Shown here: piece by piece, positions 2,106 through 4,479 of the stretch
Layout: each line of letters begins with the position of its first letter
How positions within the stretch are numbered: the stretch's first letter is position 1
Source: a virus
Lineage: Duplodnaviria; Heunggongvirae; Uroviricota; Caudoviricetes
DNA: 4,479 nucleotides
IMG/VR virus record: IMGVR_UViG_2609460005_000001
Reading direction: 5' to 3' (one strand)
Translations under genes and position numbers: made by a program
Notes under the pieces: model-generated
The model's input: only the letters and a program-made list of their open reading frames with translations
The model's database searches: none
What the model was told of the DNA's origin: nothing

Positions 2106-2782
2106 CACCGGACATTATACTGCAGCGTACCGGGATCGACGTGAGAGCTGTCGAACAGGGGGATGATGCATGGCACAAATTACGGCTCGGCGTCATCACC
2201 GCTTCAGAAGTTCACAACGTGATAGCAAAGCCCCGATCAGGAAAGAAGTGGCCTGACATGAAAATGTCCTACTTCCACACCCTGCTGGCTGAGGTTTGCA
2301 CCGGTGTGGCTCCGGAAGTTAACGCTAAAGCGCTGGCCTGGGGAAAACAGTACGAGAACGACGCCAGAACCCTGTTTGAGTTCACTTCCGGCGTAAATGT
2401 TATTGAATCCCCGATCATCTATCGCGACGAAAGTATGCGCACCGCCTGCTCTCCCGATGGTTTATGCAGTGACGGCAATGGCCTTGAGCTGAAATGCCCG
2501 TTTACCTCCCGGGATTTCATGAAGTTCCGGCTCGGTGGTTTCGAGGCCATAAAGTCGGCTTACATGGCCCAGGTGCAGTACAGCATGTGGGTGACGCGAA
2601 AAGATGCCTGGTACTTTGCCAACTATGACCCGCGTATGAAGCGTGAAGGCCTGCATTATGTCGTGGTTGAGCGGGATGAAAAGTACATGGCGAGTTTTGA
2701 CGAGATGGTGCCGGAGTTCATCGAAAAAATGGACGAGGCACTGGCTGAAATTGGTTTTGCATTTGGGGAGCAATGGCGATGA
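2102..2782 (+). CDS. exo: Exo / Red-alpha 5'-3' dsDNA exonuclease (226 aa)
   Basis: 226-aa translation [65 protein letters not shown]... is lambda exonuclease. ATGA overlap with bet indicates translational coupling. Confidence 0.97.
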
Positions 2783-2940
2783 AGCATCCTCACGATAATA
2801 TCCGGGTAGGCACGATCACTTTCGTCTACTCCGTTACAAAGCGAGGCTGGGTATTTCCCGGCCTTTCTGTTATCCGAAATCCCCTGAAAGCACAGCGGCT
2901 GGCTGAGGAGATAAATAATAAACGGGGGCTGTATGACTGA
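2779..2940 (+). CDS. orf60a-like small protein, 53 aa, apparently truncated relative to lambda orf60a
   Basis: Below the track cutoff. ATG at 2779 overlaps the exo stop (ATGA 2779-2782). Translation [53 protein letters not shown] resembles what I recall of lambda orf60a, which follows exo in the same arrangement. The stop at 2938-2940 lies inside the start of the downstream methyltransferase gene. Confidence 0.55.
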
Positions 2941-3490
2941 TTTCACCGGAAGCAATACTCCTGCCGAACATCGCGACAGCTGGCGCACACCACCAGAGAT
3001 TTTTGCTGCGCTTAATGCAGAGTTCGTTTTTCAACTTGATGCTGCCGCCAGCGAAAAAAACCGACTATGTCGGCTTTTTATCTCACAGGAGCAGAACACA
3101 TTAACCACTTCATGGCCTGAAGCAATGGGATATGCCTCTGGTTATGTCTGGTTGAATCCACCATACAGCAATATTTCCCCTTTTGTGAAAAAGGCAGCCA
3201 CTGAAAACAAATTCAGTAGTGTGGGATGTGTAATGTTATTGCCTGCTGACACATCTGTCGGATGGTTTCATGAAGCGATACAAACCGCCAGTGAGGTCAG
3301 ATTCATCACGGCAGGACGACTGGCATTTATTAACCCACTCACTGAGAAACCCGTCAGTGGAAATAATAAAGGCTCGATGCTCATTATCTGGCACCCATAC
3401 CCCCGTACACACTGCCACTTTACGACCGTTGATCGTGGAGAGTTGATGGCGTTCGGCTCAAGGATTCTTGCCCGTCGGGAGGCTGCATGA
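2933..3490 (+). CDS. Phage Dam-family DNA N6-adenine methyltransferase (185 aa), orphan with no cognate restriction enzyme in the window
   Basis: 185-aa ORF with the catalytic motif-IV tetrapeptide NPPY (in ...YVWLNPPYSNISPF...) and an N-terminal WRTPPEIFAALNAEFVFQLDAAAS segment typical of the small phage Dam family. Assignment is by motif and pattern recognition, not a search. Confidence 0.8.
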   Translation: MTDFTGSNTPAEHRDSWRTPPEIFAALNAEFVFQLDAAASEKNRLCRLFISQEQNTLTTSWPEAMGYASGYVWLNPPYSNISPFVKKAATENKFSSVGCVMLLPADTSVGWFHEAIQTASEVRFITAGRLAFINPLTEKPVSGNNKGSMLIIWHPYPRTHCHFTTVDRGELMAFGSRILARREAA

Positions 3491-3570
3491 CAACCACGGA
3501 ATGCATTTTTCTGGCAGCGGGCTTCATATTCTGTGTGCTTATGCTTGCCGACATGGGACTTGTTCAATGA
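3487..3570 (+). CDS. Candidate 27-aa hydrophobic micro-protein (MTTTECIFLAAGFIFCVLMLADMGLVQ), coupled to both neighbours
   Basis: Not in the track (too short). Its ATG at 3487-3489 overlaps the methyltransferase stop TGA at 3488-3490, and its stop TGA at 3568-3570 overlaps the ATG at 3567-3569 of the next ORF. The core IFLAAGFIFCVLML is long enough for one transmembrane helix. No independent SD was seen; support is purely structural. Confidence 0.3.
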   Translation: MTTTECIFLAAGFIFCVLMLADMGLVQ

Positions 3571-3782
3571 CACCTCAGCAGGAAAACGCCCTTCGCAGCA
3601 TTGCCCGTCAGGCTAATTCTGAAATCAAAAAAGCCAGACAGCAGTTTCCGGATAAAAACGTCGATGACATTTGCCGTAGCGTACTAAAGAAGCACCGCGA
3701 AACGGTAACGCTGATGGGATTCACACCGACTCATTTAAGCCTGGCGATCGGCATGTTAAACGGCGTCTTTAAGGAACGGTGA
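3567..3782 (+). CDS. Hypothetical protein, 71 aa from ATG 3567 (track ORF 3468..3782 begins at a TTG inside the methyltransferase gene)
   Basis: Open frame with mixed charged/helical composition: MTPQQENALRSIARQANSEIKKARQQFPDKNVDDICRSVLKKHRETVTLMGFTPTHLSLAIGMLNGVFKER. The start is ambiguous between ATG 3501 and ATG 3567; 3567 is preferred because of the ATGA coupling with the micro-ORF and because it avoids overlap with the methyltransferase. I do not recognise a family. Confidence 0.5.
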   Translation: MTPQQENALRSIARQANSEIKKARQQFPDKNVDDICRSVLKKHRETVTLMGFTPTHLSLAIGMLNGVFKER

Positions 3783-3803
3783 ACATGAAAAGCAAAATCA
3801 TCA

Positions 3804-3826
3804 GGGAGCTACAGGCTCCTTTTTTA
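3804..3826 (+). terminator. Candidate intrinsic terminator between the 71-aa ORF and the TraR-like gene
   Basis: Stem GGGAGC (3804-3809) / GCTCCT (3815-3820) with a terminal G-U pair, loop TACAG, immediately followed by TTTTTTAT (3821-3828). Short stem but a clean T-tract. Confidence 0.45.
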
Positions 3827-3880
3827 TTGTTCGCATTCATCCTCAAGCGTATTAACCAACAATTCAGGGATTAATGGAAG

Positions 3881-4099
3881 ATGGCAGACATCATTGATTC
3901 AGCATCAGAAATCGAAGAATTACAGCGCAATACAGCAATAAAAATGCGTCGTCTGAACCACCAGGCTATATCTGCCACTCATTGTTGTAAGTGTGGCGAT
4001 CCCATAGATGAACGAAGACGCCTGGCCGTTCAGGGTTGTCGGACTTGTGCAAGTTGCCAGGAGGAGATCGAACTTAAGAACAAACAATGGGGATTGTGA
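3881..4099 (+). CDS. TraR/DksA-family C4 zinc-finger protein (72 aa; phage Orf73-like RNA polymerase-binding regulator)
   Basis: Translation contains C35-x2-C38-x17-C56-x2-C59 (…THCCKCGDPIDERRRLAVQGCRTCASCQEE…), the spacing characteristic of the TraR/DksA C4 zinc finger, and the length matches TraR-like proteins of plasmids and lambdoid phages. The ATG is closely preceded by GGAAG. Confidence 0.8.
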   Translation: MADIIDSASEIEELQRNTAIKMRRLNHQAISATHCCKCGDPIDERRRLAVQGCRTCASCQEEIELKNKQWGL

Positions 4100-4146
4100 T
4101 GGCCTCAAAGCAGCAAATTTCAACATCGTCCAACTGAGGTGTAAAA

Positions 4147-4425
4147 ATGTTCAGAATCATTTTTCCTAACACCTGGTACGTCGACCACCACGGCACTCCC
4201 TGCAAAATCCTGCGTTCTACCCACAACAAAGTTCACTACATCCGAAAAGGCAGAACATGTATCGCCAGCATGTTCCGCTTTAATCATGACTTTGAACCTG
4301 TGAATAAAGCTGATGCAGATCGGATAGCAGAAGAGATCGAAACGGCAGAACACATTAAGAAGTTACGTGACATGCGTTCAAAAAGCAGAGGTAACCATGG
4401 AATCATACAGCCTCACACTCGATGA
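4147..4425 (+). CDS. Hypothetical protein, 92 aa, immediately upstream of and overlapping the excisionase start
   Basis: ORF with a good SD (GAGGTG 4134-4139, 7-nt spacer). The N-terminal half is rich in His/Cys/aromatic residues (…VDHHGTPCKILRSTHNKVHYIRKGRTCIASMF…) and the C-terminal half is acidic/basic and helical. It occupies the position held by ea-type accessory genes upstream of xis in lambdoid phages. No family recognised. Confidence 0.55.
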   Translation: MFRIIFPNTWYVDHHGTPCKILRSTHNKVHYIRKGRTCIASMFRFNHDFEPVNKADADRIAEEIETAEHIKKLRDMRSKSRGNHGIIQPHTR

Positions 4426-4479
4426 GGCCTGTCAGTTTCTTAAGATATCCAGACCAACCGCCACCAACTGGATACGAAC
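4397..4479 (+). CDS. xis: Excisionase / AlpA-family helix-turn-helix DNA-binding protein (Xis), 5' partial, continues past the window end
   Basis: ATG at 4397 opens MESYSLTLDEACQFLKISRPTATNWIR…, an N-terminus I recognise as the P22-type/AlpA-like excisionase family. The frame is still open at the window end. Its position at the distal end of the pL operon fits an xis-int module following. Confidence 0.65.
   Translation, partial: MESYSLTLDEACQFLKISRPTATNWIR

Follow-up and report, generated by a model that had tools for sequence, protein, structure and literature searches.

The DNA analyzed here, a window of 4,479 nucleotides, matches an Escherichia coli chromosome at 100% (annotated as NZ_CM129849) and phage PhiR30_1 at 99.3%. 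Its gene order, ea10-cIII-kil-gam-bet-exo-orf60a-...-xis-int, and the cIII thermosensor detected within it (Rfam RF01804) are those of a lambda-like phage, and the genes considered below sit between exo and xis on the strand of the leftward early (pL) operon. The interval 2933–4425, in which an Rfam scan matched no family, very probably belongs to the pL operon of a lambda-like E. coli prophage, of which it forms the exo-xis segment, and is assembled from three separately exchangeable modules. This region has been named and studied before, and the present copy is an ordinary mosaic member.

Gene content of the exo-xis interval

An earlier reading made from the sequence alone had described the open reading frames (ORFs) listed here as tightly packed and mostly overlapping at their start and stop codons; the coordinates and overlaps between 2779 and 4425 confirmed this, and the ORFs are real. 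The orf60a homologue (DUF1317; 2779–2940, plus strand) was identified by PF07026 (E=2.8e-33), by its PGAP annotation and by alignment with lambda and phage 21, and its final five or so codons vary with the identity of the downstream gene. A second possible ATG for this gene lies at 2773. It overlaps the upstream gene through an ATGA (2779/2782) and the following methyltransferase gene by 8 nt (2933/2940), after which come an ATGA between the methyltransferase gene and a 27-codon micro-ORF, m27 (3487/3490), an ATGA between m27 and a 71-codon ORF (3567/3570), a GTGA between the latter and a 31-codon ORF (3779/3782), and a 29-nt overlap between a DUF4222 gene and xis. Because overlapping start and stop codons extend along the whole pL operon from bet onwards, the genes of the interval would be translationally coupled as part of that operon and not as a dedicated system.

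The first gene of the interval (2933–3490, plus strand) fills the exact place of lambda orf63 in the alignment with lambda and phage 21. Its profile matches and the swap boundaries relative to lambda bear out the orphan methyltransferase of the sequence-only reading: an N6-adenine methyltransferase of the phage Dam family, well above cut-off with both Pfam PF05869 (190.5 bits, cut-off 28.1) and the equivalog model TIGR01712 (165.6 bits, cut-off 97.05), with the catalytic motif N75-P-P-Y78 at positions 3155–3166 and with orf60a and m27 as neighbors, no restriction gene adjoining it. PADLOC, which contains defence models and not anti-defence models, matched it best with its oMTase models, and this generic orphan methyltransferase was the only content of the cassette relevant to anti-defence. 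A tblastn search found no orf63 (DUF1382) homologue in loci of the same type as the window, a PDB sequence search returned no relative of the methyltransferase, and the allele was present at an identity of at least 99% in one deposited phage only.

The characterized relative of this enzyme is M.EcoVT2Dam of VT2-Sakai, an orphan of the same PF05869/TIGR01712 family with the same NPPY motif, which is 47% identical over the full length and whose reported target is GATC (PMC6602927). Its gene belongs to the pR operon, within the nin region, in contrast to the position in the pL operon after orf60a found here. Methylation of GATC by a phage Dam duplicates that of the host Dam in E. coli. A further comparison is offered by M.EcoPA8orf6770P-PNB-2 of phage PA8, which likewise lies in an early-left accessory region, beside a DUF1382 gene, with a Dam-like annotation, and which, though annotated as a DNA adenine methyltransferase, was found to methylate 16S rRNA. 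However, the PA8 enzyme is an MT-A70 protein (PF05063) that depends on a partner subunit missing from the window and has no detectable similarity to the present protein (E=27), and carrying its 16S rRNA result over to the latter was rejected.

In 160 IMG/VR loci the position occupied here by Dam is alternatively filled by orf63 or by a DpdA-like, a PAPS-reductase-like or a DndB-like (DndB/DGQHR) gene. Since these include occupants of the DNA-modification type, an anti-restriction reading fits for the Dam slot only, and an anti-defence role restricted to this slot may be considered plausible.

Two micro-ORFs, both described as hydrophobic in the sequence-only reading, flank the 71-codon ORF. 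For m27 (3487–3570, plus strand), which encodes the 27-aa peptide MTTTECIFLAAGFIFCVLMLADMGLVQ, hydrophobicity holds, and the peptide is probably a real, translated single-pass membrane peptide, as judged from its codon variants and conservation. Its ATG forms the left border of a conserved core block, and its ATGA coupling is retained behind two different upstream genes. The peptide is unchanged in 117 of 130 loci and is identical in lambda; of 16 variants among its alleles, 11 are third-position changes that are silent when read in its own frame, compared with 2–3 for the other frames (P about 1.5e-4), and none creates a stop. It is labelled "hypothetical protein" on 981 contigs and carries no annotation in PGAP or in the lambda RefSeq record.

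The second micro-ORF, m31 (29 aa, 3785–3874, plus strand; 31 aa from a GTG at 3779), always adjoins the TraR-like gene described below and was found in all 160 IMG/VR loci. It departs from the earlier description in having a GRAVY of only 0.04 and in overlying a terminator-like hairpin (3803–3831, plus strand), found by sequence scan and RNA folding, with an 8-bp stem followed by UUUUUUAUU. The hairpin folds at −11.1 kcal/mol (z=−3.06), and no variants were seen at positions 3805–3819 in the first sample of loci. The start codon is ATG in lambda, whose 31-aa ORF differs at one residue, and the ORF is annotated in phages 21 and 434. Its frame preference is weak, with 9 synonymous and 10 non-synonymous variants. 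Translation of m31 may nevertheless occur, given that a review assigns to the exo-xis region a 31-aa peptide detected by ribosome profiling of lambda (PMC8614690), a peptide tentatively equated here with m31 on the wording of the review and on length.

Between the two lies the 71-codon ORF (3567–3782, plus strand), the full-length form of orf61 of lambda and Stx phages (phrog_303), whose product is predicted to be a three-helix bundle. On sequence grounds, the annotated orf61 of lambda is a frameshifted form of this gene. The 71-codon frame is intact in 145 of 145 DNA loci, and the idea that the gene decays frequently, raised by protein homologues resembling double frameshifts around an A-run, was dropped on that count. 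The ZapA identity that NCBI attaches to many orf61 homologues was likewise rejected, there being no PF05164 match above cut-off and no ZapA-like fold. A scan of genome contigs for homologues in other species added no diversity, as nearly all hits were Escherichia or lambda-identical contigs in unrelated taxa, the latter probably contamination with control DNA.

The TraR-like regulator of the sequence-only reading was recovered as a TraR/DksA-family zinc-finger ORF (3881–4099, plus strand), an orthologue of lambda Orf73, through Pfam PF01258 (35.2 bits, cut-off 24.9), its identity to Orf73 and its alignment with TraR; with the NCBIfam TraR subfamily model TIGR02419 it scored 53.6 bits, below the cut-off of 59.7. 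The protein aligns over its full length with F TraR (PDB 5W1S/6N57), with which it shares four zinc ligands (C35, C38, C56 and C59) and the residues D3 and D6 (MADIIDSA aligned with MSDEADEA). It is 90% identical to Orf73, including the two extra cysteines typical of that protein, and differs from it by seven substitutions in 71 aligned residues, five of them at the C-terminal end, and by a shorter tail (72 aa versus 73). Both D3 and D6 are required for function in TraR and in Orf73, and the D3A/D6A mutations of Orf73 abolish its phenotype in lambda (PMC9239242). By homology, the protein would be a regulator acting in RNA polymerase's secondary channel.

About 50 nt downstream of orf73, a 92-aa DUF4222 protein (phrog_285; 4147–4425, plus strand; PF13973, 69.4 bits, cut-off 27) is encoded in place of lambda ea22 and ea8.5, and no match to ea22 was found in loci sharing the architecture of the window. 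The protein is predicted to form an SH3/Tudor-like barrel (residues 10–52) followed by a long C-terminal helix. The sole studied DUF4222 relative is RgdR (ECs1581), a pleiotropic transcription modulator that regulates type III secretion and motility in EHEC and in which an RGD motif is important for activity (PMC3378721). By its description, RgdR has the same Pfam domain and is likewise prophage-borne (99 aa versus 92 aa), but its context is a P4-like island in contrast to the lambdoid exo-xis context here. The RGD is absent from residues 20–22 of the present protein, which has K-I-L instead, with K20 and I21 invariant in the alignment. The last gene is the 5′ part of an HTH_17 excisionase-like (xis) gene, cut by the end of the window (4397–4479, plus strand), and after it the source genome encodes a tyrosine integrase whose homology to DLP12 intD was seen by tblastn.

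Relation to lambda and DLP12

The interval occupies the same position in the pL transcript as lambda's exo-xis region, and orf60a, full-length orf61 and orf73 are all present (PMC8614690, PMC3824215), with about 98% DNA identity to lambda across the orf61-orf73 segment (3487 to about 4076). It differs in carrying Dam for orf63, a single DUF4222 gene for ea22, ea8.5 and orf55, and xis and int genes of DLP12 type. The sequence-only reading had taken the whole orf63, orf61, ea22 and ea8.5 block of lambda as replaced; this is right for orf63 and for ea22/ea8.5, but orf61 has been kept, and lambda also has m27, the 31-aa ORF and orf73.

The closest arrangement is that of PhiR30_1 and of the left end of DLP12 in E. 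coli B and ATCC 8739, where Dam, the 71-aa ORF, TraR, DUF4222, xis and int occur in the same order at 98–99% identity. In the DLP12 remnants a deletion has truncated Dam and joined what is left to part of replication gene P, and xis is disrupted, whereas all genes are intact in the window.

Module borders and co-occurrence

The interval consists of at least three modules with borders at gene boundaries. Homology to lambda and phage 21 runs up to the shared ATG at 2933, resumes at the ATGA at 3487 and ends near 4070, and the end-points of matches cluster at query positions 555, 1128–1144, 1441–1444 and 1493. Every one of the 179 phage records with the core between these borders (3487 to about 4076: m27, the 71-aa ORF, m31 and the TraR-like gene) matches it at an identity of 95% or more.

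Of 5426 complete E. coli genomes, 3393 contained some part of the cassette, whereas 312 had the Dam allele and 295 had 80% or more of the cassette. In the IMG/VR set, where loci were picked by TraR similarity and frequencies are biased accordingly, m31 and TraR were present in 160 of 160 loci, full-length orf61 in 139, orf63 in 101 and Dam in 21, and DUF4222 accompanied one TraR allele in 79 of 80 loci and the other in 9 of 80. Comparative genomics of the exo-xis interval across genomes and prophages, the check proposed together with the view that the genes travel and function as a unit, thus speaks against that view: more than 90% of core carriers have no Dam, and the junctions fall at gene borders. 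That Dam is linked to the other genes, with 80% or more of the cassette in 295 of the 312 genomes that have the allele, is best explained by recent shared ancestry within one DLP12-like prophage lineage.

State of the prophage in the source strain

Positions 1–76 are the end of an IS1 copy (annotation of NZ_CM129849) that truncates the prophage upstream of ea10. Other genomes align from position 77 onwards only, and the IS1 end accounts for the very large number of match places. Because of this truncation, pL and N are absent from the source strain, which makes expression of the interval there doubtful.

Discussion

The Orf73 orthologue is the one gene of the interval for which a function in host takeover, proposed earlier for the whole cassette, finds support, through 90% identity to an experimentally characterized protein and retention of D3, D6 and the four zinc cysteines. 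Lambda Orf73 binds RNA polymerase, inhibits rRNA promoters, slows host growth and raises phage yield, with a small effect in promoter activation and with two laboratories disagreeing on the yield (PMC9239242). At this level of identity, the present protein would occupy RNA polymerase's secondary channel as TraR does and would shut down rRNA and ribosomal-protein promoters without ppGpp, leading to a slower host and more phage. It would be expressed from a nearly invariant core module common to lambda, 21, 434 and Stx phages, together with m27, m31 and the 71-aa Orf61, which would act as a three-helix protein, and N-modified polymerase would read through the terminator-like hairpin under m31. 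To the left of the core, Dam would be produced early in lytic growth and methylate phage DNA as it is replicated, most likely at GATC if it follows its relative at 47% identity, so that progeny DNA could be fully modified against restriction. The right-hand module would combine the DLP12-type xis and int with DUF4222 as a small barrel-plus-helix protein.

That the six ORFs are inherited together as one cassette for anti-defence and host takeover, working as a unit, appears highly improbable. Close packing with start/stop overlaps, the 295 of 312 Dam-allele genomes with at least 80% of the cassette and the DNA-modification genes drawn to the post-orf60a slot speak for it; yet the overlaps run along the whole operon from bet onwards, and the Dam linkage points to shared descent because most copies agree at an identity of at least 99% at the nucleotide level. 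Beyond the scarcity of Dam among core carriers and the junctions at gene borders, one locus (L134) combines Dam with the other TraR allele and lacks DUF4222, and ea22, ea8.5, an ASCH gene or others take the place of DUF4222 elsewhere. Separable single-gene phenotypes have already been reported for lambda orf60a, orf61, orf63 and orf73, and among the matches listed in the exo-xis literature none tied these genes to counter-defence or tried them against defence systems. For the methyltransferase itself, a role other than chiefly anti-restriction is unlikely. Dam overproduction suppresses mismatch repair, and early over-methylation of GATC might blind MutH and so aid Red recombination between diverged phages, or might tune phage or host expression or replication timing. 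The Dam gene lies directly 3′ of gam-bet-exo-orf60a on one transcript, and with the host Dam already present further GATC methylation would protect little in E. coli; the DpdA-like, DndB-like and PAPS-reductase-like occupants of the same slot, however, point to DNA modification and restriction evasion.

We are also doubtful, to a lesser degree, that the micro-ORFs are not genes, m31 being an intrinsic terminator whose tail is rich in T and m27 a spacer retained by linkage. PGAP calls neither; m31 encloses the hairpin and U-run, the T-tract accounts for its hydrophobic run FLLFAF, and its variants show no third-position bias (8 of 19). Against this stand the own-frame synonymous excess of m27, its freedom from stop variants and its retained ATGA coupling, and, for m31, a synonymous count that is the highest of the three frames, no stop-creating variant and the peptide that the review places in the region. 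For the source strain, the chances are about even that the prophage is decaying and that the interval persists as a relic which is neither expressed nor functional at present. IS1 abuts position 77, and upstream there are IS5, IS3 and disrupted integrase and baseplate genes; neither N and pL nor the immunity region is present, and a truncated copy of the cassette persists in what remains of DLP12 in E. coli B and ATCC 8739. Conversely, every ORF is intact and 99–100% identical to PhiR30_1, a phage genome deposited as complete, and to hundreds of other genomes, and read-out from IS1 is possible.

Beside our preferred reading of the interval as separately exchangeable modules stands a joint proposal that we regard as equally open to acceptance and doubt. 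In it, m27 would be a true membrane micro-protein, strongly conserved in lambda and most E. coli lambdoid prophages and hidden under the mis-framed N-terminus of annotated orf61, with lambda orf61 derived from the 71-aa gene by a lineage-specific A7 frameshift, and the position after orf60a would serve lambdoid phages as a dedicated place for swapping genes of DNA modification and anti-restriction (Dam, DpdA-like, PAPS-reductase-like and DndB-like).

The discovery value of the locus is small, as earlier work had described the region, how conserved it is and Orf73/TraR as its main effector, and the cassette is already deposited and annotated in PhiR30_1 and in hundreds of E. coli genomes, among them E. 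coli B and BL21 with their DLP12 remnants. Caution is warranted regarding the "ZapA" label for orf61 homologues, which is propagating in databases. For the biology of lambdoid phages, the frameshifted reference orf61 of lambda and the overlapping, constrained 27-aa ORF affect how published orf61 deletion phenotypes are read, since these phenotypes may reflect m27 or polar effects. The distinction between the fixed parts of the exo-xis region (m27, Orf61, m31 and Orf73) and the swap-slots would guide the search for anti-restriction cargo.

Gene content and genomic setting of the interval

The interval between exo and xis (2933–4425) is the known exo-xis region in mosaic form, which is common in E. 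coli and has already been deposited and annotated. All ORFs named there by the sequence-only reading were confirmed in position on the + strand: a 185-aa methyltransferase (2933–3490; hereafter Dam) that matches PF05869 Dam (190 bits) and the TIGR01712 equivalog (165.6 bits, cut-off 97) and has 'orphan MTase' as best PADLOC matches, a 27-aa ORF with no family (m27, 3487–3570), a 71-aa ORF with a match to phrog_303 only (3567–3782), a 29-aa ORF, 31 aa from a GTG, also with no family (m31, 3785/3779–3874), a 72-aa TraR/DksA zinc-finger protein (PF01258 zf-dksA_traR, 3881–4099), and a 92-aa protein of PF13973 DUF4222 (4147–4425). The overlaps of start and stop codons were likewise borne out (ATGA at 3487 and 3567, GTGA at 3779, 8 nt at 2933–2940, and 29 nt at 4397–4425); since bet/exo and exo/orf60a are coupled in the same way, this coupling is a property of the operon and not specific to the interval.

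The + strand of the window corresponds to the direction of the lambda pL transcript and encodes an ea10-like DUF2528 gene (226–594), cIII (667–831), kil and gam between cIII and bet, bet (1320–2105), exo (2102–2782), orf60a/DUF1317 (2779–2940), and an HTH excisionase gene from 4397. An intact lambda cIII RNA thermosensor (Rfam RF01804, 88.5 bits) covers 654–712, from upstream of cIII into the gene. On the + strand, terminator-like hairpins with a T-run lie ahead of the ea10-like gene (178–199) and between this gene and cIII (618–637), both in gaps between genes of the pL operon, and also inside orf60a (2843–2865). The chromosome of E. coli SW07164 matches the window at 100% identity, and at least 80% of the window is present in 307 of 5426 complete E. 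coli genomes. The prophage is bordered by an IS1 end (1–76) a short way upstream of the ea10-like gene, and beyond it come IS5, IS3, remnants of a baseplate, and a split integrase (positions 1–6021 of the source-chromosome locus L003). The prophage of the source strain has thus lost N, pL, and the immunity region.

Comparison with lambda and the orf61 frameshift

The sequence-only reading took the interval for a replacement of the lambda gene set by a different one. We compared the two using a six-frame ORF listing of lambda 27.7–34.5 kb and a three-way DNA alignment of the window, lambda, and phage 21. The two are homologous as far as the ATG at 2933, with which orf63 starts in lambda and Dam in the window; homology resumes from the ATGA at 3487 and stops near 4070 at the 3′ end of orf73. 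Replacement therefore holds for the exchange of orf63 for Dam, of ea22/ea8.5/orf55 for the DUF4222 gene, and of xis/int, but is wrong for the core of m27, the 71-aa ORF, m31, and the TraR-like gene. Lambda has an identical m27 peptide, a 31-aa ORF that differs by one residue, an unannotated 73-aa ORF that is the published orf73 (64 of 71 residues, 90%, shared with the TraR-like protein of the window), and a frameshifted 71-aa ORF.

The lambda copy of the latter is broken by one extra A (A7 vs A6 at window 3626–3631; about 30,870 in lambda NC_001416; L002 3140–3325, minus strand). The window, phages 21 and 434, and all 145 other loci scored carry A6, the 71-codon frame is intact in these 145 loci, and the extra A occurs in all lambda-type records, as judged by match length. 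The annotated 61-aa orf61 of lambda is thus what a frameshift and truncation have left of a conserved 71-aa gene: a 31-residue out-of-frame N-terminal extension across m27 is followed by 22 real residues and a frameshifted tail, so that only 22 of 61 residues are those of the true protein. A review has already remarked that Orf61 of lambda 'appears truncated' compared to Stx-phage Orf61 (PMC8614690). Published lambda/Phi24B genetics called orf61 and orf60a 'pro-lytic' (PMC8614690); the lambda data for orf61 came from the frameshifted gene. The name 'cell division protein ZapA', given by NCBI to many homologues of 3567–3782, was rejected, as the Pfam ZapA match falls below the cut-off and the predicted fold has no ZapA match. 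Contigs with a one-base length difference like that in lambda orf61, some of about 48.4–48.5 kb, were also found in assemblies labelled Shewanella, Pseudomonas, Oceanobacillus, Kitasatospora, Bradyrhizobium, and others (L012–L025), where contamination with lambda control DNA is likely.

Co-occurrence of the genes

Among deposited phages, the whole interval was found only in PhiR30_1 (99.3% identity), with parts only in a further 182 records. Even a sensitive search found the block 3481–3885 in 179 phage records with an identity of 95% or more in each; lambda, 21, 434, SfI, and many Stx phages are among them. Any part of the interval was present in 3393 of the 5426 complete E. coli genomes, the Dam allele in 312, and at least 80% of the interval in 295. 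For an evenly spaced sample of 40 of the best places in these genomes, the architecture was orf63 with the core only in 12 (e.g., EDL933), orf63, core, and DUF4222 in 11, the same with an ASCH gene before DUF4222 in seven, Dam, core, and DUF4222 in four, and partial in six.

Two TraR alleles also served as anchors to collect 160 IMG/VR loci, in which we scored the genes by tblastn. Here m31 and TraR occurred together in every locus and the 71-aa ORF in 139; m27 was present in 122, always and only with orf63 (101 loci) or Dam (21 loci) preceding it. DUF4222 accompanied the window TraR allele in 79 of 80 loci vs 9 of 80 for the allele of the Stx phage VT2-Sakai, and one locus (L134) combines Dam with a non-window TraR allele without DUF4222. 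The genes thus dissociate into three modules in this exo-to-xis comparison, which contradicts the proposal of a single co-inherited cassette. Dam copies are linked to the rest at 99% identity or more in most cases, and this near-perfect linkage appears to reflect a single prophage lineage related to DLP12. Remnants of this gene set lie beside a tRNA-Arg gene upstream of fimZ in E. coli B REL606 (L006 2759–4343) and ATCC 8739 (L007): a truncated Dam, the 71-aa ORF, TraR, DUF4222, a broken xis, and intD. The cassette is retained in the cryptic prophage DLP12 of E. coli B and BL21-type strains, where a deletion fuses Dam to a fragment of replication gene P and xis is broken.

Coding capacity of the micro-ORFs

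Variants were pooled from all fetched loci, 130 of which cover m27, and each was scored in three frames. In the m27 frame, synonymous third-position changes account for 11 of the 16 distinct variant alleles (23% expected at random; binomial P about 1.5e-4) and the five replacements are mostly conservative (F>L, A>V, G>V, V>A, D>N), whereas the other two frames have 2/16 and 3/16 synonymous changes and one stop-creating change each. G3498T, found in 87 of the 130 loci, creates a stop codon in the frame on which both the long lambda 'orf61' N-terminus and the 93-aa Stx-phage annotation (e.g., VT2-Sakai orf10) rely. The m27 peptide is identical in 117 of the 130 loci and has a 21-residue hydrophobic stretch (GRAVY 1.62), and its ATG, at the left edge of the conserved block, shares bases with the stop codon of whichever of the two genes precedes it. 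We accordingly regard m27 as very probably translated and the long Orf61 N-terminus as not genuine, which fits the remark that residues 1–23 of the Phi24B model are unreliable (PMC8614690). Although absent from the lambda RefSeq and PGAP annotations, m27 is not unknown to databases, where the exact peptide is a 'hypothetical protein' on 981 contigs.

The coding evidence for m31 is mixed. Nine synonymous vs ten non-synonymous variants give only a slight preference for its own frame, no stop-creating variant occurred in the pooled loci, m31 is annotated in phages 21 and 434, and a review mentions a 31-aa peptide from lambda ribosome profiling for the exo-xis region (PMC8614690). The ORF also contains an 8-bp hairpin followed by UUUUUUAUU (z=-3.06), and the T-tract after the hairpin encodes a hydrophobic FLLFAF run.

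The TraR-like and DUF4222 proteins

A full-length alignment of the TraR-like protein with F TraR, as seen in RNA polymerase complexes (PDB 5W1S, 6N57; E=3e-5), places D3, D6, and the four zinc cysteines in register, and the protein shares the two extra cysteines noted for lambda Orf73. According to Gopalkrishnan et al. (PMC9239242), Orf73 binds RNA polymerase, acts at low concentration and without ppGpp as an inhibitor of rrnB P1 and of ribosomal-protein promoters, complements a dksA null, slows host growth when expressed from pL, and raises phage yield 3- to 4-fold, an effect lost with D3A/D6A. An earlier study had found yield after infection to change in the opposite direction. With 90% identity, the mechanism of Orf73 is the best inference for the window protein. 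Host takeover, as proposed for the cassette, thus stands for this gene only and is already published for the lambda orthologue.

The only studied member of the DUF4222 family that we found, RgdR, is encoded on a prophage, regulates type III secretion and motility in a pleiotropic manner, and binds DNA weakly and without specificity (PMC3378721); its RGD motif is missing from the window protein, which with low confidence we would guess to be a small transcription-modulating adaptor.

The methyltransferase and its slot

The window Dam has NPPY at residues 75–78, no adjacent restriction gene, and relatives in 2063 phage records, among them T1-like, Vibrio, and Stx phages. VT2-Sakai orf32 (nin region) is 47% identical over the full length and is taken to be M.EcoVT2Dam, an orphan methyltransferase from prophage VT2-Sa with GATC as its reported target (PMC6602927). 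A Stx-phage enzyme labelled 'DNA adenine methyltransferase' and recently reported to methylate 16S rRNA is an MT-A70 protein without similarity to the window Dam, so this function is not transferable by homology; the case cautions against trusting the label.

A role of the window Dam in mismatch repair or Red recombination would be a reasonable alternative to anti-restriction. The strongest contextual clue to an anti-restriction role is the slot itself. Directly after orf60a (window 2933–3486), the 160 IMG/VR loci carry orf63, Dam, a 250-aa DpdA-like transglycosylase (phrog_887 'queuine tRNA-ribosyltransferase', E=4e-99), a 414-aa PAPS-reductase-domain protein (PF01507), or a 354-aa DndB/DGQHR protein (PF14072, TIGR03187) (e.g., L039, L043, L045, L130), and the last ~5 codons of orf60a vary with the occupant. 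The DpdA-like gene is not confined to this slot: three loci have it downstream of the TraR gene instead. In the PAPS-reductase variant L039 (2450–3700, minus strand), about 1.4 kb between the PAPS-reductase gene and m31 contains opposite-strand ORFs for a 210-aa probable membrane protein and a split SAM-methyltransferase-like gene, and looks like a moron insertion.

Four of the five kinds of occupant are DNA-modification-type genes, which supports a role in self-modification and anti-restriction for whatever occupies the slot. Such a role is plausible for the slot genes, and an anti-defence function of the interval is plausible for the Dam slot only. Three side findings are worth a note, namely the frameshift in lambda orf61, the constraint on the m27 ORF, and the swap-slot for DNA-modification genes, but they do not make the proposed cassette remarkable.
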